DNA from: a virus
IMG/VR virus record: IMGVR_UViG_3300009124_000007
Location: 12,967-76,966 of that record
Strand: one strand, 5' to 3'
DNA length: 64,000 nt
The notes beneath the pieces were generated by a model that searched no databases, was not told the origin of the DNA, and saw nothing but the letters and a program-made list of their open reading frames with translations. The translations under genes and the position numbers were made by a program. Shown piece after piece: positions 12,249 through 33,875 of the stretch; the first letter of the stretch is position 1; every line of letters starts with the position of its first letter.

Positions 12249-13081
12249 ACCTAAAAACCCCTCTTCGCTATCCTGGTGGTAAATCTCGTGCCACTAAAAA
12301 ACTCGCACAGTTTCTGCCTGACATGAGTCAGGTTCGTGAGTTCCGTGAACCCTTCCTGGGAGGTGGTTCTGTGGCACTCTACATGACTCAGATGTACCCA
12401 CATATGTCTGTATGGGTCAATGACCTGTATGAACCTTTAGTGAACTTCTGGAAGGTCTTGCAGACCGATGGTAAGAAGATGCGCGATGAACTCGTTCAAC
12501 TCAAGAATCGCCATCCAGATCCTGCATCAGCGAAGGTTTTGTTTCTAGAGGCAAAAGAATATCTACAGCATTCTATCAAGAAGACTGAACCTTTTCATCG
12601 TGCTGTTAGTTTCTATGTGGTGAACAAGTGTTCGTTCTCTGGTCTCACTGAGTCTTCTTCTTTCTCGAATGCAGCATCAGATTCCAACTTCTCGATGCGT
12701 GGCATTGATAAACTGCCCGAATACCAGATGCTGATTCGTAACTGGAAAATCACAAATCATTCTTACACTCAGGTGCTGGGTAATGGGGAAGACATCTTCA
12801 TCTATCTCGATCCCCCATACGATATCAAAGACAATCTGTATGGTAATAAAGGTAATATGCACGCTACATTCAATCACGATACCTTTGCAAAGGATTGTGA
12901 GAATCATGCAGAACGAGTCAAGATGATGGTCTCATACAACTCCAGTCAATTGATTCGAGATCGATTCATGAACTGGCATCCTTATGAGTTTGACCATACC
13001 TATACCATGCGATCTGTTGGTGATTACATGGCAGAGCAACAAGAACGTAAAGAATTGGTACTAATCAACTATGGCATTTGA
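12245..13081 (+). CDS. dam: DNA adenine methyltransferase (Dam/D12 class)
   Basis: LRYPGGKS, EPFLGGGSV, YLDPPY. Confidence 0.92.
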   Translation: MNLKTPLRYPGGKSRATKKLAQFLPDMSQVREFREPFLGGGSVALYMTQMYPHMSVWVNDLYEPLVNFWKVLQTDGKKMRDELVQLKNRHPDPASAKVLFLEAKEYLQHSIKKTEPFHRAVSFYVVNKCSFSGLTESSSFSNAASDSNFSMRGIDKLPEYQMLIRNWKITNHSYTQVLGNGEDIFIYLDPPYDIKDNLYGNKGNMHATFNHDTFAKDCENHAERVKMMVSYNSSQLIRDRFMNWHPYEFDHTYTMRSVGDYMAEQQERKELVLINYGI

Positions 13082-24632: not shown

Positions 24633-24822
24633 TTTCTGGATTCACTTGGTAGCATTCTTCCAAGTTGTCGTGATGAATTGCATTCAACCTGCCAACTGGA
24701 AGTATTGCTACCGTGTTGACCAGTGGTTGATCCCAGATCTTGTAGAAGGTTATGAGATCTGGACTCAGAAAAAACATCCTTATCAAAACGAAAAGGAATA
24801 CCTAAATCGCATTGATAAATAA
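24625..24822 (+). CDS. small hypothetical protein
   Basis: 65-aa ORF with CIQPANWKYC and HPYQNEK. Confidence 0.6.
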   Translation: MLSFWIHLVAFFQVVVMNCIQPANWKYCYRVDQWLIPDLVEGYEIWTQKKHPYQNEKEYLNRIDK

Positions 24823-24845
24823 GGGGGTAGAGTCCCCTCTTTTTT

Positions 24846-26267: not shown

Positions 26268-26358
26268 AAGCAGGGACTATATAAAAACTGTCACAAGACC
26301 CCCGCCACGGGGGTTTTTTCATGCTAGTATATAAGGGTCAAAGAAAAACGCCCTTTCT

Positions 26359-27333
26359 ATGCCTGCTAATACTCATCTGGAACACCCCGAAGACATGGTT
26401 TTCCACGGGGAGTATATAAGTCTGCTCAACTTTTTCTACAATCTGCCGTCCAATCAGCGTGTATCAGTCAAGTGGGACGGTGCCCCTGCTTTGGTATGGG
26501 GTATATGCCCTTCCTCGGGTCGCTTCTTTGTAGGAACTAAGTCGGTTTTCAATAAGCGCAAGATCAAGATCAACTATAATCACCATGATATTGATATGAA
26601 TCATGGTGACAATCCTGCTGTAGCATCTATTCTTCACGTTGCATTTGAGTGTCTTCCTGTTCCTGGCAACGGAGGTTATCTGCAGGGAGACTTCATTGGT
26701 TTTGGCGATACCAATACTTTCAAACCCAATACCATTGAGTATCGGTTTGACAATACTATCAAGCAATCTATAGTTGTTGCTCTCCATACTCGTTATGAGG
26801 GTGCTTTTATCGAACCTCGCGTTCAGTTTGGTATTAGTACCAACGATGTTATTTGGTCAGATCGTCGTCAAGATCGCTGCTATCTGATTGACACTGCCCA
26901 TGCATCTGTGGAATACAAGTCTGTCTTCGGTAAGATGTATCGCACTCAACTTGCAAAGTTTTTTGCTCACCGTGCTAAGTTTCCTGCTGCTCGTGCAACC
27001 ACTCAGTACCTGAAAACTCACGTCAATAAATACATCCGCCATGGCATCATGCCCACTGCTACTGAGATGTACGATTCGTTACCTGATAAATATAAGAGTC
27101 AAGTGAACGTTGATTTGTTTCGCCTCTTTGAGGTTATCTATAATCTGAAAAACAAAGTGATGAAACATATCGTTGTTTATAACCAAGCAGAATGTTACAT
27201 TGATGGTCAACCCACTGATCATGAAGGTTTCGTGATTACCAGTTCTGGTCAAACCTATAAAATGGTGAACAGGTTGGAATTTAGCAAAGCGAACTTTACC
27301 CTAGATAAAAATTGGACGAATGAAAAAGTTTAG
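26359..27333 (+). CDS. ATP-dependent ligase-fold nucleotidyltransferase-like protein
   Basis: NTHLEH N-terminus; KWDG (motif I), QGD, HEGFV (IV), YKMV (V). Confidence 0.65.
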   Translation: MPANTHLEHPEDMVFHGEYISLLNFFYNLPSNQRVSVKWDGAPALVWGICPSSGRFFVGTKSVFNKRKIKINYNHHDIDMNHGDNPAVASILHVAFECLPVPGNGGYLQGDFIGFGDTNTFKPNTIEYRFDNTIKQSIVVALHTRYEGAFIEPRVQFGISTNDVIWSDRRQDRCYLIDTAHASVEYKSVFGKMYRTQLAKFFAHRAKFPAARATTQYLKTHVNKYIRHGIMPTATEMYDSLPDKYKSQVNVDLFRLFEVIYNLKNKVMKHIVVYNQAECYIDGQPTDHEGFVITSSGQTYKMVNRLEFSKANFTLDKNWTNEKV

Positions 27334-28492
27334 CACCTTCCTTAGCGAGGCGGCAAAATCCACAGCAGGACAGCAAGCAGAGAAACTAGGACTTACCCAT
27401 GCTGGGTATGGTCGCTGGATGAACAAACGTGGCGAGGTGACACACATCTCAAAGCAGGGCAAACTGATTCCTATAGCACAACAACCCGAAGTAGCACCAG
27501 ATGGAGGAGAGGCACCAGCACCCGAAGCGCAACAACCCGCTGCGCCAGAAGCACCTGGAGAGGTATCTAAAGGTCCGATTACTATTACTTTTGGAAGATT
27601 CAATCCTCCTACTACAGGGCATGAAAAACTCATTCAGCAGGTAGCATCACAAGCAGGTGATGGTGACTATCGAATCTACCCATCACGCTCCCAGGATCCT
27701 AAGAAGAATCCTCTGGATCCAGAAACTAAGGTGCATTACATGCGCTTGGCATATCCAGATCATGCTCATGCTATCCACAATGATGATAATATGAAGAGCA
27801 TCTTTGATGTTCTTGAGGGACTATATGGTGAGGGGTATAGTGATGTCAATATTGTAGTTGGTGGCGATCGAGTAAAAGAGTTTGATGCTCTCGCTAACAA
27901 GTACAACGGCAAACTTTATAACTTTACCAGCATCAATGTGAAGTCTGCTGGTGATCGTGACCCAGATGCTGATGATGTATCTGGCATGTCTGCATCTAAA
28001 CTTCGTGCTCATGCAGCAGAGAATGACTACGAATCTTTTTCTTCTGGTTTGTCTAAGAACCTAGAGGATAAGCACAAGAAAGAACTGTTTGCACATTTGC
28101 GTGGTAATATGAAGATGGAGGAGGCAGAAGATTTTGCTGAAGCATCTTTTGTTCTTCATGAAGTTGCTCCCAAACTAGATCCTACAAGTTTACGTGAAGC
28201 ATATTACAACAAAGAAATTTTCAAAGTCGGACAGATTGTTGAGAATTTGAACACTGGTGTGATCGGTAAGGTTGTATCACGCGGTGTAAATTACGTTATA
28301 TACATAGATGAGCATGAGGAAATTTATCGCGGTTGGTTGAAGGATCTCGTGGAGAGAAACGACATCAAACGCTTTGATTTTACTCCGCTTGGTAAGATTG
28401 GTACAGATGAACTAGCACATAAAGTTGCTGCTATGACACCTGGACAATTTATTCAGAAGATAAATAAAAGAAACAAAACTGCTGAACGATGA
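27320..28492 (+). CDS. cytidylyltransferase-family (HxGH) nucleotidyltransferase with N-terminal capsid-targeting-like peptide
   Basis: TFGRFNPPTTGHEKL, VVGGDR, MSASKLR; N-terminus MKKFSTFLSE. Confidence 0.85.
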   Translation: MKKFSTFLSEAAKSTAGQQAEKLGLTHAGYGRWMNKRGEVTHISKQGKLIPIAQQPEVAPDGGEAPAPEAQQPAAPEAPGEVSKGPITITFGRFNPPTTGHEKLIQQVASQAGDGDYRIYPSRSQDPKKNPLDPETKVHYMRLAYPDHAHAIHNDDNMKSIFDVLEGLYGEGYSDVNIVVGGDRVKEFDALANKYNGKLYNFTSINVKSAGDRDPDADDVSGMSASKLRAHAAENDYESFSSGLSKNLEDKHKKELFAHLRGNMKMEEAEDFAEASFVLHEVAPKLDPTSLREAYYNKEIFKVGQIVENLNTGVIGKVVSRGVNYVIYIDEHEEIYRGWLKDLVERNDIKRFDFTPLGKIGTDELAHKVAAMTPGQFIQKINKRNKTAER

Positions 28493-29532
28493 ACTACGAA
28501 GCACTGCCTGGAATGGAAGAAGCACTAAGACTAGTGCAAGAAAAGAAGATGAGCAAAGAAGCTCATAAGAAAGCTGCTAAGGCGGGCAAGCGTTGGCAGG
28601 ACTCCGATGGTGACGGTAAGTGGTATGAACCTGGTGAGGATGTAAAAGAAGCAAAGAAGGATGACACATATCTGGAAACGGATATGAAGAAGCGCCAAGC
28701 AAATAACGAGAAGGCTCGTAAGGAACTTGCAAAGGGTCCTCAAATGAAGAACCCACACTTTGAAGAAGTCCAACTAGAAGGTGTCCGTGACACTGACCCA
28801 GAGAAGGGCACTGAAGAGAGAAAGGCACGTCTTGAGAAGAAGCGTGGCATGAAACTCGATGACCATCCTCAGTATAAGAAGGAAGAGGTTGAACTAGACG
28901 AGAACCGTGCTGCTGCTCGTGCTGCTGGTGGTTATAAGGATGACAGCAAGAAGCAGACCGATCCTTCTAAGGCAGGTTTCACTGGCATCTCTGGTAGCAT
29001 CAAAGACATCATGCGCCAGAACAAAGAGATCGAAGCAGCAAATAAAGCAAAGGCGAAGAAGGAAGAAGTAGAACTTGAGGAAGGTAAGAACAAAGAAGGA
29101 AAAGAGCAGGGTGTTGACGGTAAAGCATGTTGGAAAGGTTACCGCTATGCTGGCACCGAGAATGGTAAGGACAAGTGCGTTCCTGCTAACGAGGAACTAG
29201 AGACCATGGAAGCAAGTCTGCTTGAGTCTGGTCTGTTCTCTGATGATGAAGTACGTTACATCATCGGTGAGAAGTTCGACGAACTTGAGGAACTCTACAA
29301 AGGTAAGCACGGTCAGTCTGAGAAAGAGTATCAGGATGGTCGCTCTGATGGCGGCAAGATGGTTTCGGGTGACAGCAAGCACAGTGGTGCTGCATACTCC
29401 TCCCGTGCTGTCAAGAATAGTGGTCCTAATCCTGCAGGTGGATCTAAGAAACCTCAGGGTCAGGGTCGTATGACTTCTGGTGCTCGTGCTGATCTACAGT
29501 ATCGTAAGGCAAATATGAAGGCAGGTAAGTGA
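28489..29532 (+). CDS. modular Lys-rich protein with repeated EEVxLxE linkers (putative internal head polyprotein)
   Basis: EEVQLE, EEVELDE, EEVELEE separate short basic modules; ATAAATA upstream. Confidence 0.7.
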   Translation: MNYEALPGMEEALRLVQEKKMSKEAHKKAAKAGKRWQDSDGDGKWYEPGEDVKEAKKDDTYLETDMKKRQANNEKARKELAKGPQMKNPHFEEVQLEGVRDTDPEKGTEERKARLEKKRGMKLDDHPQYKKEEVELDENRAAARAAGGYKDDSKKQTDPSKAGFTGISGSIKDIMRQNKEIEAANKAKAKKEEVELEEGKNKEGKEQGVDGKACWKGYRYAGTENGKDKCVPANEELETMEASLLESGLFSDDEVRYIIGEKFDELEELYKGKHGQSEKEYQDGRSDGGKMVSGDSKHSGAAYSSRAVKNSGPNPAGGSKKPQGQGRMTSGARADLQYRKANMKAGK

Positions 29533-31709
29533 TGGCAGACGAAAAGAAAGTCACTGGTAAGCAATCCAAAATCAAAGTCAACCCACGATCTGAAGAAATA
29601 ATGGAACGCAGAACTAATATCGCAAGACAAATCCTCGGCAATAAACTCACAGAAATGAGAGTTGCCGATGACTTTGATCACTTTGCAGCAGATCATTTCA
29701 CTGATGAAGAACTTCTAGAAATCTGCGAAGAAGTTCTCTCAGAAATGAATACTGAAGATCTGGAAGAGATCTGTGAAGCGATTGAAACTAACCTGGAAGT
29801 CATCTCTGAGAGAATGGATCCTAAAGAGATCCAACGTCGTAGAGACCAGGCAAAGGATAGACTTGCAACTGGTGCTGCAATGAAGAAAGCAGCAGAAAAG
29901 TCTGCTGCAGAGAAATCCTCAACCACATCTTCCGATGCAAAACCATCTCGTGCAGAACGTGTCAAGTCTGCTCTCAAGAAAGCTGCTTCGACCACTAAGA
30001 ATGTCGCTAAGAAAGTCGCTAAGGGTGCTGGAGAGGTCGCTGGTGCTGCTCGTGCTGGCTACCGCGATGCTGCGGGTTCCTCATCCTCTGGAAATACTGC
30101 TGGATCTTCTAGTGGTTCTTCTAGTAGTTCTTCTTCTTCCTCTAGTGGCGGTGGGTCATCGTCTGGAGGCAGTGGGGAGAACAGAGTCAGACTTCGTGAC
30201 AGACTGAAAGGTGCTATCAAGAAAGGTGTAGGCAAACTTGCACGTTCAGTATCTCGTGGTGCTCGCAACGTTGCTCGTAAGATGGGTGAAGAAACTGTAC
30301 TTGGTTTCTCCGCATTCATTACTGAAGGCAAAGTCAAGTGTAAGGAGTGTGCTGGCAAAGGTTGCAAGCACTGTGGTGATAAGGGTTACATGGTGACCCA
30401 TGACTGCTCCAAGAAAGTAGAACATGCTGAGTGGGGTATTGGTGAGTGTATTGCTGAGCAGCATACACTAGATGAAGAAGGTAACATCACTCACTACGAT
30501 GTTCAGTTTGAGCATGGTTTGGAAGAGAATGTATCTGTAGAGGTTCTCAAGACTCTTGTCTCTGAAATGCATGAACATGCTATCAACTACGACAAGAACC
30601 AGGAGGTACTTGGCGAAAAAAAGGATGAAGAGGGGTTCGCTGGTGAAGCAACCTCTTACAAAGGTGTAGTAATCAGACGTACCAAGTCTGGTTATGAAGC
30701 ACCTAGATTCAATCTAAAGAGCAATTCTGTCGATGGTATCAAGCAGAACATCGATAAAGAGATTGCTAAGGTTGATGAGTCCTACAAACCAGATGCTGCT
30801 AACAACTACAACGGTCCTCTCTATGCTCCCTGGACTGCTGTGAAGAAAGAAGATGTAGAATATGTTGATGAGGATTCCCGTCGTATGAGCAATAAGCAAC
30901 ATACTGCTCGTGTAAAACAAAACATCAAAACTTTTGGAAGTAATTTCACTCCACCCAATAACTATGACCCCGATGCTAATCGTGGTAAGGGTGAAGTTGT
31001 TACTCGTAAACAGATGGAGAAGAAGCGTCGTAAGGCACTTCGTCAAGAAGAAACTATCCTAGAGCGTGGTGACTATTGGCATCCAGATCCTGAGAAGGAT
31101 AAGAAACTGGGTGGTCCTGGTGCTAACCAACGTGCTCGTGAAGATCGTGGATCTAAATCTTCTTCCTCTTCTTCCTCCTCCTCTTCCGATTCTAAGAAAC
31201 TGAAGCCAGGTGAGTCCTATATGGACTATGCTAAGCGTCAGAAGTCGGGTAAGTCTTCTTATGCGTCCAGTGGTAAGACTGCTCGTGAGCGTCTTCAGAA
31301 AGCAGGTGCAAAATTTTCGACTCCTGCTAAGAAAGAAGGACTCCGTGATAAGATCAAGCGTAAGTTGGGTCTGAAAAAAGAAGAGTTTGCCATGCAGGAA
31401 GGCAGAGCAGAAGATGCACAAGCATCTCTAGCAAAAGTCAAAGCACGTCAGAAGGTTCTCGATGCACATGAGAAGAAGACTGGCAGGAAACTTGACATCT
31501 CTAAGACACCTGAGCACAAAGCACACAAGAAAGAATTCCCTGGTGCTAAACGCACTGGTAAGAAAGTTCCTGGTGCTAAGGAGACTCCTGCTGAAACTCA
31601 GCGTAGACAAACCAATCGTCAGGTTTCTAGGGTCGTCAAGCATGGTTACACTTCTAAAGAAAAGAAAGAAGTTGAATCGATGGCAAAGCATACCTCAGCA
31701 AGAGATTGA
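29529..31709 (+). CDS. 726-aa modular basic protein (putative internal head polyprotein) with an internal -1 frameshift signal
   Basis: Modules bounded by EVISE, AFITE, EDVEYVDE, EETILE, EEFAMQE; poly-Ser linkers; CxxCxGxGCxxC module. Confidence 0.7.
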   Translation: MMADEKKVTGKQSKIKVNPRSEEIMERRTNIARQILGNKLTEMRVADDFDHFAADHFTDEELLEICEEVLSEMNTEDLEEICEAIETNLEVISERMDPKEIQRRRDQAKDRLATGAAMKKAAEKSAAEKSSTTSSDAKPSRAERVKSALKKAASTTKNVAKKVAKGAGEVAGAARAGYRDAAGSSSSGNTAGSSSGSSSSSSSSSSGGGSSSGGSGENRVRLRDRLKGAIKKGVGKLARSVSRGARNVARKMGEETVLGFSAFITEGKVKCKECAGKGCKHCGDKGYMVTHDCSKKVEHAEWGIGECIAEQHTLDEEGNITHYDVQFEHGLEENVSVEVLKTLVSEMHEHAINYDKNQEVLGEKKDEEGFAGEATSYKGVVIRRTKSGYEAPRFNLKSNSVDGIKQNIDKEIAKVDESYKPDAANNYNGPLYAPWTAVKKEDVEYVDEDSRRMSNKQHTARVKQNIKTFGSNFTPPNNYDPDANRGKGEVVTRKQMEKKRRKALRQEETILERGDYWHPDPEKDKKLGGPGANQRAREDRGSKSSSSSSSSSSDSKKLKPGESYMDYAKRQKSGKSSYASSGKTARERLQKAGAKFSTPAKKEGLRDKIKRKLGLKKEEFAMQEGRAEDAQASLAKVKARQKVLDAHEKKTGRKLDISKTPEHKAHKKEFPGAKRTGKKVPGAKETPAETQRRQTNRQVSRVVKHGYTSKEKKEVESMAKHTSARD
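30076..30170 (+). repeat. low-complexity TCT/TCC tract encoding poly-Ser/Gly
   Basis: GSSSSGNTAGSSSGSSSSSSSSSSGGGSSSGG; a second poly-Ser tract lies near 31158-31187. Confidence 0.7.
30601..30657 (+). other. putative programmed -1 ribosomal frameshift cassette
   Basis: AGGAGG(30601-06), 10 nt, in-frame A_AAA_AAG(30617-23), -1 stop TGA(30626-28), stem-loop 30628-57. Confidence 0.65.
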
Positions 31710-31732
31710 GCATATATAAGGTATAATCCTAT

Positions 31733-31945
31733 TTGGTAACACCCATGGTATCATTTCTACTTCCACTTGCTTATAAAGTAGTCGATGCTGCAGTTGCTAA
31801 GATTCCTGATGATGCAGAACTAGGTGAGAAACTCATCGATCTCTGTCTTCTGATCGTTGGCAAAGCAGTAAAACTAACTAAGACTACTGCTGATGATGAA
31901 CTATTTGAGAAGGTAAAAGAAGCACTCCAAACCCGCGAGGGTTGA
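31733..31945 (+). CDS. small conserved hypothetical protein
   Basis: LLPLAYKVVDAAVAKIPDDAELGEKLIDLC...TKTTADDEL. Confidence 0.65.
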   Translation: MVTPMVSFLLPLAYKVVDAAVAKIPDDAELGEKLIDLCLLIVGKAVKLTKTTADDELFEKVKEALQTREG

Positions 31946-31950
31946 GTTTT

Positions 31951-31981
31951 AGAGGGGCAAAAGCCCCTCTTTTTATAAATA
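31951..31981 (+). terminator. terminator followed by a T4-type late promoter
   Basis: AGAGGGGC-AAAA-GCCCCTCT-TTTT, then TATAAATA(31974-81). Confidence 0.8.
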
Positions 31982-32010
31982 AATATTAGGAAAACATTCG
32001 GGGAACACTC

Positions 32011-32595
32011 ATGTCTTTATACGGAAGAGTTGACTCTGTTGCCAACCAGACCGCTGTTGGTCTTACTAGAGGTAATGGCGCAGGGTCTGCAACAGAAACA
32101 ATTGTTTTCGTTGACGAAACGGAAGCAGGTCTTGCAGCAAACAAAGAGCGTGGCATCACTGCTCCTGGTTGGTGGGCATATCGTACCTACACTGATGCAG
32201 CAGGTAGCACCCGTCATAAAGCAGAGCACCTGATGGTTCTCACTAATCCTGAGGCAAACGCACAAGAGACTCTCGCTGACGACACCATCGCAGCAGACGT
32301 TCAAGCACTCATCACCATCTCTGCACAACCTACCGATCAGACCACCGTCAGCGGCGCAGCAACCTTCAGCGTTACTGCTGCTTGTGATAACAGTGGCACG
32401 GTTACCTTCCAGTGGCAGAAGAAGACAGCAGGTAGCACCCGCTATGTCAACGTCTCTGGTGCAACCTCTGCATCTCTGGCACTCACAGGTCAAACCGCAT
32501 CCGAAACTGGTGACAAGTATCGCGTCAAGTTGAATGCTAACGTTGGTGCTCCTGAGGTTATCTCTGATGCTGTAACACTAACATTTGGCACCTGA
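32011..32595 (+). CDS. virion structural protein with C-terminal Ig-like domain
   Basis: ITISAQP...ATFSVTA...FQWQ...KYRV; late promoter upstream. Confidence 0.75.
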   Translation: MSLYGRVDSVANQTAVGLTRGNGAGSATETIVFVDETEAGLAANKERGITAPGWWAYRTYTDAAGSTRHKAEHLMVLTNPEANAQETLADDTIAADVQALITISAQPTDQTTVSGAATFSVTAACDNSGTVTFQWQKKTAGSTRYVNVSGATSASLALTGQTASETGDKYRVKLNANVGAPEVISDAVTLTFGT

Positions 32596-32601
32596 TAATA
32601 T

Positions 32602-32964
32602 ATGAACTTCAGCGAACTGAATGCTAATAACTACATTCTGTTCGCCATCAAACATTATGAAAATCCTCAGAGCGTAACGCGAGAGGATTTTGATGAAGAC
32701 ATGAAACGCTTCAAGTATCTCAAGAGATTGTTCAAGAGATACTTGAAGTCTCATGATTTGAGAACTCATCTCATCATCAATCATATTATTATTTTGTATA
32801 ATGTTTTTGGCGAAGCAGCAACACCGTTACTCTTTTTCAAACTGGAAAGGGAGTATTGGCCTTTGCTAAAAACCTTTCTATTATTTTTGAATAAATATCC
32901 TGTAGGCATGTTGCCAGGATTAGATATCGAAGAAGAAATTCAAGAGGAGCTTGATAAACTATGA
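32602..32964 (+). CDS. conserved T4-like hypothetical protein
   Basis: FAIKHYENPQ...DMKRFKYLKRL...HLIINHIIILYNVFG. Confidence 0.8.
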   Translation: MNFSELNANNYILFAIKHYENPQSVTREDFDEDMKRFKYLKRLFKRYLKSHDLRTHLIINHIIILYNVFGEAATPLLFFKLEREYWPLLKTFLLFLNKYPVGMLPGLDIEEEIQEELDKL

Positions 32965-33875
32965 TGACCGTAGGTACTGGTGGTTTTAGTGGTTCCGCTG
33001 CAGCAACTGGACCTGTAGCAGGGTTCGATCCTGTCTTGGATTTTCGTAAGAGAATGGCAAACAAGATCAAAGATCATCCTTATGCCCAGCAGTATAAGGA
33101 GAAGCGTAAGAAAGCAAAAAAACTGAAAGAGGCAATGGATCGCCATGCCCATCAGGTTGCTCATCTCTACCAGTACAAAGTAAACATCCCTGAAGTGGGT
33201 GAAACTATTATCTTCGCATCTTCGCAAGCAGAACTAACAATGAAGATGCGTCTTCTTATCAACCCACGCTATCGTGGTGATGTAAAGATTGATAGAATCT
33301 TCCCTTCTGATGCTGGAAAGTTTTATAACGAAAAGAGAATGAAAGCATATAAAAATCTCCCTGAGCAGATGGAAGATCCTGCAGACAAAGCAGCAGCTGC
33401 TTCGGCAAAGAAAGAGCAAGATGCTGCTAAGAAGGCAAATGATGCTGCTAAGAAACAAGCAGCAGCACTGAAGAAGCAACAGTCGCAGAAAGAAATTGCC
33501 ACCAAGATTGCTGCAGAGAAGAAAAAAATTCAACTGAAGACTGCAGAGATGCAGAAAACACTGCAAACTAAGATTGCAGGCATGAAAAAAGCAGCAGCAT
33601 CTGGCGCATCTACTGGTGGTGTTGCCGAAGAGTTCATGCATGAATCTTCAGGTGGTAACATCGATGCAATCAAAAAGATTGCTGATAGCAATCAACCAGG
33701 TAAGATTACATTCTTGAATGGCGAGAGTTTCCAACTCCAACCAGCAATTGCACAGAAAATTTTCCAAGCATACGAGACACTAGGTATGCAAAGGAACAAA
33801 GCGAAGTTTAGTAATGCTGCAAATGAGAATACACAATCATTCCAAAAGATCTTAGATTTTGTGGGGCAGTCATAA
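32961..33875 (+). CDS. modular hypothetical protein (possible third head polyprotein)
   Basis: GPVAGFDP N-terminal module, Ala/Lys coiled module, C-terminal module after EEFMHE. Confidence 0.65.
   Translation: MMTVGTGGFSGSAAATGPVAGFDPVLDFRKRMANKIKDHPYAQQYKEKRKKAKKLKEAMDRHAHQVAHLYQYKVNIPEVGETIIFASSQAELTMKMRLLINPRYRGDVKIDRIFPSDAGKFYNEKRMKAYKNLPEQMEDPADKAAAASAKKEQDAAKKANDAAKKQAAALKKQQSQKEIATKIAAEKKKIQLKTAEMQKTLQTKIAGMKKAAASGASTGGVAEEFMHESSGGNIDAIKKIADSNQPGKITFLNGESFQLQPAIAQKIFQAYETLGMQRNKAKFSNAANENTQSFQKILDFVGQS

Follow-up and report, generated by a model that had tools for sequence, protein, structure and literature searches.

A targeting leader, cuts after glutamate and basic cargo of the head are already known from phage T4 and the giant phages. 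The T4 capsid-targeting sequence is MKTYQEFIAE (PMC8442874), in which positions 4 and 7 are used for targeting and positions 8 and 10 for processing; aspartate at position 10 blocks processing (PMC9026906). The basic internal proteins of T4 stay with the DNA, their lysines contacting the phosphates (PMC3012670), and in giant phages the cargo is packed with the DNA and the propeptides carry several redundant sites (PMC9026906). Here, we describe a cassette of two overlapping open reading frames (ORF2 and ORF3, Table 1) in a stretch of 64,000 nucleotides (the window; positions 12,967 to 76,966 of IMG/VR record IMGVR_UViG_3300009124_000007). What is new in this cassette, as far as can be read from the sequence, is that, in a cyanophage, numerous small units that can be exchanged are strung together, with a putative cleavage site in front of each. 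We consider it somewhat better than an even chance (a probability of about 0.55) that ORF2 and ORF3 are head-internal cargo polyproteins that are cut by a gp21-type protease at the junctions between their modules.

The cassette shares several features with T4 IPI, IPII, IPIII and Alt: a basic composition, sequences that vary strongly between related phages, a gp21-type protease encoded in the genome and relatives in virions. A ten-residue leader with aromatic residues at positions 4 and 7, an aliphatic residue at position 8 and Glu at position 10 is found on the neighbouring transferase and on the second variable protein of other phages. It has no sequence relation to these proteins, and the T4 units are single and cut once, whereas the cyanophage proteins are chains of many modules with a predicted site for each; moreover, the cassette uses at least three leader types and ORF3 has no N-terminal leader of ten residues. 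Several hydrophobic-x-Glu sites per protein and acidic helical segments are also found in T4 gp22, gp67 and gp68, which are cleaved to small peptides inside the prohead, as is predicted for the cassette. Those proteins are conserved and mostly expelled, whereas the cassette varies, is largely basic and exists alongside a gp22 that the phage encodes separately. The inner-body or ejection proteins of phiKZ, 201phi2-1 and SPN3US are likewise head proteins cut after Glu, in their case by a diverged relative of gp21 (PMC9026906), and similar cuts are predicted here; however, they are large single units in much larger capsids, with a small residue two positions before the Glu (S/A/G-x-E), whereas the cassette consists of shuffled mini-modules. 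As in viral polyproteins, a single translation product contains several units separated by short protease sites, putative in our case, but viral polyproteins are a main expression strategy and include essential enzymes, whereas the cassette would be accessory and processed in the capsid. A literature search returned no description of such module chains and no report of separate mature products.

T4-like cyanophages are among the most abundant marine viruses. DNA and protein searches with the window gave matches limited to Synechococcus and Prochlorococcus myoviruses, and in the ORF map of the 76,966-base record the cassette is flanked by genes for a gp41-type helicase, MazG, gp61 primase and NrdA. 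Genes for gp20, a Peptidase_S77 protease, gp22 and gp23 lie in the same record, approximately 6 kb upstream of the window. The protease matches PF03420 (Peptidase_S77; E 1.4e-34) and is 41% identical to T4 gp21, so that the gp21-type protease expected with T4-type capsid-targeted head proteins is present in this record. Identity to T4 gp23 is 37% for the capsid protein, which has VLSE/T at the position of T4 FLTE/A (here and below, a slash marks a cut or predicted cut), and the phage encodes a gp22 and a gp67-like gene of its own. The phage is a T4-like cyanomyovirus, uncultured, that encodes a gp21-type protease itself. For comparison we used 17 isolates and 17 metagenomic loci. The latter were obtained by scanning IMG/VR with the transferase encoded directly upstream of ORF2 as the query; few of them include the downstream flank, and the isolate records were more informative.

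Packaging of the cassette proteins into the head is probable and well supported, as positional or mosaic homologues are listed in virion proteomes of isolates. In purified S-SM1 virions (Table S8 of Sullivan et al., 2010, PMC3037559) the T4-GC190 transferase was detected with 25 counts, GC425 and GC426 with 17 each, GC119 with 13, GC1454 with 10 and GC1455 with 7. GC1454 and GC1455 correspond to SSM1_191 and SSM1_192, the two genes right after the transferase; SSM1_191 has the ORF2 leader and the module of ORF3 residues 53-255 (E 3e-23), and SSM1_192 has the KIKVNP leader described below. GC426 is the family of ORF7, a gene further downstream, and GC119 is that of Syn9 gp114, which has the stretch of ORF3 residues 501-706 in common with the cassette. 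The published proteome of S-CREM2 virions includes gp154, which is the transferase, gp155 and gp156, which are encoded right after it, and gp160, a member of the ORF7 family that carries a CWxGY-type module; the proteome of S-SZBM1 includes the transferase and the product of the adjacent gene. The first-pass annotation of the window, made from the letters of the sequence, had read these genes as capsid-packaged polyproteins and had named absence from virions as the observation that would speak against this; the relatives in S-SM1, S-CREM2 and S-SZBM1 are present in the particles.

ORF2 consists of a leader (residues 1-18, MNYEALPGMEEALRLVQE), five Lys-rich segments, a short acidic segment (residues 247-268) and a basic C-terminal YKGKHGQ module (residues 269-347). 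In ORF3, a leader with KIKVNPRSEEIME26 is followed by an acidic stretch (residues 27-94, net charge -15), a basic stretch (residues 95-266, net +21), a zinc-ribbon and β module (residues 267-363) and further basic modules up to the end of the protein. Lysine and arginine together account for 20.5% of ORF2 and 19.8% of ORF3, in agreement with the Lys/Arg richness noted previously, and both proteins contain many Glu and few hydrophobic residues. We could also retrieve each of the linkers and motifs that had been listed: EEVQLE (28762), EEVELDE (28882), EEVELEE (29062), LVQE18, DVKE54 and DELEE268 in ORF2, and EVISE94, FSAFITE266, EDVEYVDE448, EETILE512 and EEFAMQE624 in ORF3, as well as the CWKGY...C module and the CxxCxGxGCxxC module of ORF3, which looks like a zinc ribbon from its sequence. 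The near-identity ascribed to the linkers holds for the three best, which share 69-85% of their DNA over 26 bases (that of EEVELDE recurs at 29056 with 85% identity), but not for the others, which have only a common pattern. In addition to the PHROGs in Table 1, seven further PHROGs match parts of ORF3 (E 2e-4 or better). In Pfam, ORF2 had no match and ORF3 had only a sub-threshold hit to Mu Gp48; Pfam, a PDB sequence search and the ESM Atlas named a function for none of the single modules. AlphaFold2 (AF2) models from single sequences contain helices and disorder without a compact fold, at low confidence (predicted template modelling score, pTM, 0.19 for ORF2 and 0.23 for ORF3; predicted local distance difference test score, pLDDT, 49.6 for ORF3).

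Table 1. Features of the cassette and its surroundings in the window. Junctions are predicted cuts, numbered by the residue before the slash.
Feature	Position	Strand	Basis or remark
Cytidylyltransferase-like nucleotidyltransferase (T4-GC190)	27320-28492	+	Matches PHROG 395 (E 3e-120) and, at the family cut-off, Pfam CTP_transf_like
Transferase leader MKKFSTFLSE	27320-27349	+	First ten residues; T4-type capsid-targeting pattern
ORF2, 347 aa, chain of approximately eight segments	28489-29532	+	PHROGs 9737, 1418 and 3326 each cover part only
Junction VQE18/K, end of ORF2 leader	28534-28542	+	Leader conservation in 10 phages
Junction VKE54/A before KDDxYLE module	28642-28650	+	Point of divergence of S-ShM2; MSE, VKE and VTE in three contexts
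Linker EEVQLE97/G (residues 92-97)	28762-28779	+	94%-identical ACG-2014f module begins at residue 97
Linker EEVELDE138/N (residues 132-138)	28882-28902	+	Homology to L002 stops here
Linker EEVELEE198/G (residues 192-198) before CWKGY module	29062-29082	+	Homology to L002 and S-ShM2 resumes here
Junction LEE268/L before YKGKHGQ module	29284-29292	+	Motif at the same offset in 11/11 occurrences; S-ShM2 protein ends here
ORF3, 726 aa, GTG start overlapping ORF2 stop	29529-31709	+	PHROG 11470 E 6e-198
Internal FSAFITE266/G (residues 260-266), copy of transferase leader pattern FSTFLSE	30306-30326	+	Zinc-ribbon module next
Junction LGE363/K, end of β module	30609-30617	+	VLGE or VFGE ends the same module before another in ACG-2014a and S-RIM8
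Junction ILE512/R before GDYWHP module	31056-31064	+	VNE in S-ShM2 and LKE in L006 before the same module
Junction MQE624/G before C-terminal HEKKTG module	31392-31400	+	LEE/G in S-RIM8; FNE/D in S-RIM2 and S-IOM18
Terminator-like hairpin (31951-31970), then TATAAATA (31974-31981)	31951-31981	+	Closes unit of approximately 26359-31945
ORF7 (T4-GC426)	32961-33875	+	Conserved virion protein; extra C-terminal module after VAE/EFMHE

The similarity of ORF2 to other phages is piecewise (tblastn, BLASTP), and when ORF2 and ORF3 were compared by BLASTP with the ORFs from the retrieved loci, local matches only were returned, the order of which varies between phages. The YKGKHGQ module closes ORF2, whereas in S-SCSM2R it opens a protein of 530 residues and in S-CAM22 it occupies residues 64-147 of the first variable protein. 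In S-RIM2 it is found close to the end of a protein of 632 residues, and in ACG-2014d it is central in the second variable protein. In most phages, the first variable protein has the zinc-ribbon and β module of ORF3 close to its N-terminus, and ORF3 residues 501-706 match Syn9 gp114, encoded elsewhere in the Syn9 genome beside neck and terminase genes. When ORF2 is compared with its two nearest relatives (L002 and S-ShM2), all four homology breakpoints fall on linkers (DVKE54, EEVELDE138, EEVELEE198 and ELEE268). Genes also end or split at junctions, as in S-ShM2, where the counterpart of ORF3 is split into two genes and a gene stops 22 codons past the junction equivalent to LGE363. Modules are exchanged among cyanophages while the motif at their junctions persists, as the first-pass annotation had anticipated.

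The junctions were surveyed by locating eleven module cores through short conserved words and reading the residues that precede them, with Asp permitted at the last position before the predicted cut (P1). Counting back from the YKGKHGQ core, position -2 is Glu and position -4 is hydrophobic in 11/11 occurrences, which cover six unrelated upstream contexts and eight spellings of the tripeptide (FDE, FAE, LEE, LSE, VEE, IEE, VVE, and ILE). For the CWKGY module, hydrophobic-x-Glu is found 5-15 residues upstream in ten of eleven occurrences. The same junction pattern precedes GDYWHP (LKE, VNE, ILE), TRYAKETG (LYE, LDE), KDDxYLE (MSE, VKE, VTE), NRKRAAQR (LGE, FDE, FGE, VQE), NKMFRK and DPKEIQRR, so that a conserved protease-site pattern stands at the boundaries of recurring modules; over approximately 29 distinct module-context junctions the motif keeps a fixed offset before the core while its residues vary. 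P1 is Glu in all 43 occurrences and never Asp, whereas the acidic residues at the preceding position (P2) comprise 14 Glu and 8 Asp, near the background ratio (P 6e-5 by Fisher's test, or 2.5e-4 if distinct contexts are counted). The strictness of Glu at P1 makes the pattern directional and matches the requirement of the T4 protease for Glu.

Leaders of more than one type are found in this gene block. The ten-residue pattern fits the transferase, where it is followed by Ala; this leader is kept in all relatives, which start with sequences such as MKKFSAFLTE, MKKFSDFLSE, MKSYKDFLSE, MKRYKEFLNE or MKNFSSFLTE, and Glu at its last position is invariant in the relatives seen. It also fits the second variable protein of other phages, which opens with MLSFKALSE, MKSFKSFIAE or MKTFQSFISE, followed by a conserved K-I-K-I-N-P-x-x-x-E-x-x-E piece. 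The ORF2 leader differs; ten phages share its core, LPxMxxALxxVQE, in their first variable (post-transferase) protein. In ORF3 the pattern occurs internally only, as FSAFITE; this copy and the transferase leader are the sole two matches to the leader pattern in the 77-kb record. The leaders would presumably serve targeting.

We propose that one tightly packed transcription unit makes ORF2, ORF3 and the leader-bearing nucleotidyltransferase. Short N-terminal leaders would carry ORF2 and ORF3 into the prohead core, where a gp21-type serine protease would cut after Glu at the hydrophobic-x-Glu sites found at the ends of the leaders and ahead of every module. Cutting at the junctions with the best support would give eight fragments from ORF2 and nine from ORF3, in which acidic and basic pieces alternate. 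The leaders and ORF3 residues 27-94 are acidic (net -3 to -15), with several sites each, and would act as propeptides; the large predicted pieces are basic (ORF2 269-347, +10; ORF3 95-266, +21; 513-624, +14; 625-726, +15). Strongly basic modules (net +8 to +21) would remain with the packed DNA, like the T4 internal proteins, and probably exit with it. We infer this mechanism from the behavior of the basic internal proteins of T4 together with the charge of the predicted pieces. With a site of its own, a module could be moved, lost or gained, or a gene split, without loss of processing, and the mosaic would follow because each module carries its own cut site. Every single cut within the chains is a prediction from the linker sequences, the pieces would presumably be retained in the head and reach the host, and an effector role of the products is speculation.

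Several observations weigh against this proposal. The N-terminus of ORF3 has no ten-residue leader and retains the second leader piece only (KIKVNPRSEEIME; KIKVNP...IME). EEVQLE, located in a region of ORF2 that is disordered in the AF2 model, has Gln at P3 and does not strictly fit hydrophobic-x-Glu, and several predicted sites lie within predicted helices, including the ORF2 linkers at residues 132-138 and 192-198. Hydrophobic-x-Glu occurs 1.68 times as often as independence predicts (z 15.6), but for the reversed Glu-x-hydrophobic the factor is 1.70, because hydrophobic and acidic residues cluster in these proteins; we therefore dropped global motif enrichment as evidence, and the case rests on position and direction rather than on frequency. 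An automatic test of BLAST segment ends was weak (starts 31% versus 27%, P 0.17; ends 38% versus 28%, P 0.003), as the segments run through similar linkers and low-complexity stretches. The S-SM1 virions yielded gp21 and gp22 as well, so detection alone is no proof of retention as cargo. In the literature on these proteins we found no cleavage product for any phage, the proteomes giving peptide counts only. Directly upstream of the transcription unit we looked for a late promoter and found no TATAAATA, only TATATAAG-like sequences before 26359; late timing is thus not supported here.

Part of this evidence would suit whole virion proteins that lose at most their leader, with the acidic hydrophobic stretches acting as charge-balancing spacers, partner-binding segments or recombination joints. 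The equal enrichment of the reversed pattern and the predicted helicity of linkers 132-138 and 192-198 are in line with this explanation, as is the fact that T4 internal proteins are cut only once (PMC8442874), and the 69-85% DNA identity of the three best linkers over 26 bases could act as microhomology. Against it stands the strict Glu at the last position, where Asp is common one residue earlier, a directional feature that matches the protease rule. The tripeptides vary between phages and yet hold the pattern, which points to selection on the pattern rather than to shared descent or DNA homology, and genes end and split at the same places. For these reasons, we regard uncut proteins as unlikely, although they deserve serious consideration. 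DNA repeats as the main cause of the pattern were rejected, since the identity extends over 26 bases at 69-85% only and the tripeptides differ between phages.

ORF2 and ORF3 could also be accessory scaffold or core proteins, cut by gp21 in the prohead and mostly expelled before packaging like T4 gp22, gp67 and gp68, in which case the modules would serve no purpose once the head is assembled. In T4, several L/I-x-E sites are cleaved in the core proteins, most of which is then lost from the head (PMC9026906), and acidic, helical stretches with multiple sites such as ORF3 27-94 resemble T4 gp22 and gp68. An ESM Atlas model of ORF3 residues 288-351 (window positions 30390-30581) aligns with a T4_CASP cluster (template modelling score 0.58 over 64 residues), which is a lead only, and gp22 itself is found in S-SM1 virions. 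Yet the phage has its own gp22 and gp67-like gene, and neither ORF2 nor ORF3 has a match to the Pfam family T4_CASP at E 0.1. Most of the mass of the proteins is strongly basic, suiting contact with DNA over a scaffold, their extreme variability is unlike that of an assembly part, and the S-SM1 peptide counts are comparable to those of true virion parts. Taken together, this makes a scaffold role quite improbable. Least of all do we expect non-virion proteins of the replication region that bind DNA or remodel the nucleoid in the infected cell, with the motif as a composition effect: the genes lie between those for helicase and MazG and those for primase and NrdA, and the proteins are Lys-rich, but relatives occur in three independent virion proteomes, the block also holds an immunoglobulin-like (Ig-like) head protein and a protein with a gp23 arm, and the leaders fit the T4 targeting pattern.

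If the cargo polyprotein proposal is correct, a common loading tag and a cut-site grammar would explain how these proteins enter the particle; since 2010, a "cytidylyltransferase" and several hypothetical proteins have appeared in cyanophage virion proteomes with no reason given for their presence. A variable protein cargo would then be delivered at the first moment of infection, and hydrophobic-x-Glu at module starts would provide a rule for finding such cargo in uncultured phages. A further step, which we consider doubtful, is that the cassette represents a combinatorial library of injected mini-proteins, each module being an independent agent, for example for anti-defence, host takeover or DNA handling. 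The head protease would free the modules in the capsid, they would enter the cell with the DNA, and recombination could freely reshuffle the set into a fast-evolving arsenal for the first minutes of cyanophage infection.

ORF7 had been suggested to have the same architecture as ORF2 and ORF3. LKE, LPE and EEFMHE are present, and lysine and arginine make up 17.4% of the protein. However, ORF7 is a virion protein whose N-terminus copies the mature gp23 arm, and not a module chain: residues 3-26 match gp23 residues 56-79 of the same phage (21/24 residues and 53/78 bases, 68%, identical; window positions 32961-33038), and the match begins three residues past the likely gp23 maturation site VLSE/T. 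The remainder comprises a conserved folded core, a coiled stretch rich in Lys, Ala and Gln, and at most one added module, which is present at the C-terminus in this phage, S-ShM2 and ACG-2014d, whereas short-form homologues end near residue 220. The earlier polyprotein reading gains from the protease gene, the T4-type leader, the virion homologues and the module exchange, and does not extend to ORF7. The copied arm suggests that ORF7 docks in the capsid lattice by mimicry of gp23; in the ORF7-family protein of S-CREM2, a gp23-like arm is placed after a 20-residue extension.

The surrounding gene order is conserved: nuclease-like protein, DUF6267, cytidylyltransferase, one to three variable proteins, a 64-70-residue protein, Ig-like head protein, DUF7207, ORF7 family, DUF7201 and primase. 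This order is kept in isolates whose matching genes sit in the block, including S-ShM2, S-RIM2, S-RIM8, S-IOM18, S-RIM12, ACG-2014a, ACG-2014d, S-CAM22, and S-SM1.

Some further observations concern individual proteins of the block. In the window, AGGAGG lies 10 nucleotides before an in-frame A_AAA_AAG (positions 30601-30623), exactly on the VLGE363/KK junction of ORF3. The -1 frame stops after two codons, and both heptamer and immediate -1 stop are kept in S-ShM2; a frameshift would therefore yield a short form ending at the module boundary. In P-HM2 (L032, 3846-5741) the transferase is split: its catalytic part has no leader, and a second gene, starting with MKSLSDFTKKSKVAE, contains the C-terminal β domain and cassette modules. 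RB11-B (L023, 5756-9145) encodes two successive large proteins whose N-termini, MDVFKYLKKADTFLKE and MKSFLNFFSE, resemble leaders and precede the GLxxxGxGxW piece known from the transferase; the annotation of one of them as a tail fibre protein is probably wrong. S-CREM2 gp156 (L036, 4013-4726), found in virions, starts with MKKLISE and has a GG...D-x-D pattern resembling a nucleotidyltransferase, and may be another head-loaded enzyme. In S-SM1, the position of the nuclease-like gene is taken by SSM1_188 (GC1453; L033, 6447-7280), which belongs to a different family and has 12 virion counts, so that the packaged set may begin upstream of the transferase.

The genes at 26359-31945 of the window are packed or overlapping. 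Three terminator-like hairpins (24821-24841, 26299-26320, and 31951-31981) frame the nuclease-like gene and this unit. TATAAATA occurs six times in the window versus 1.7 expected, and the copy directly after the last hairpin precedes the Ig-like gene.

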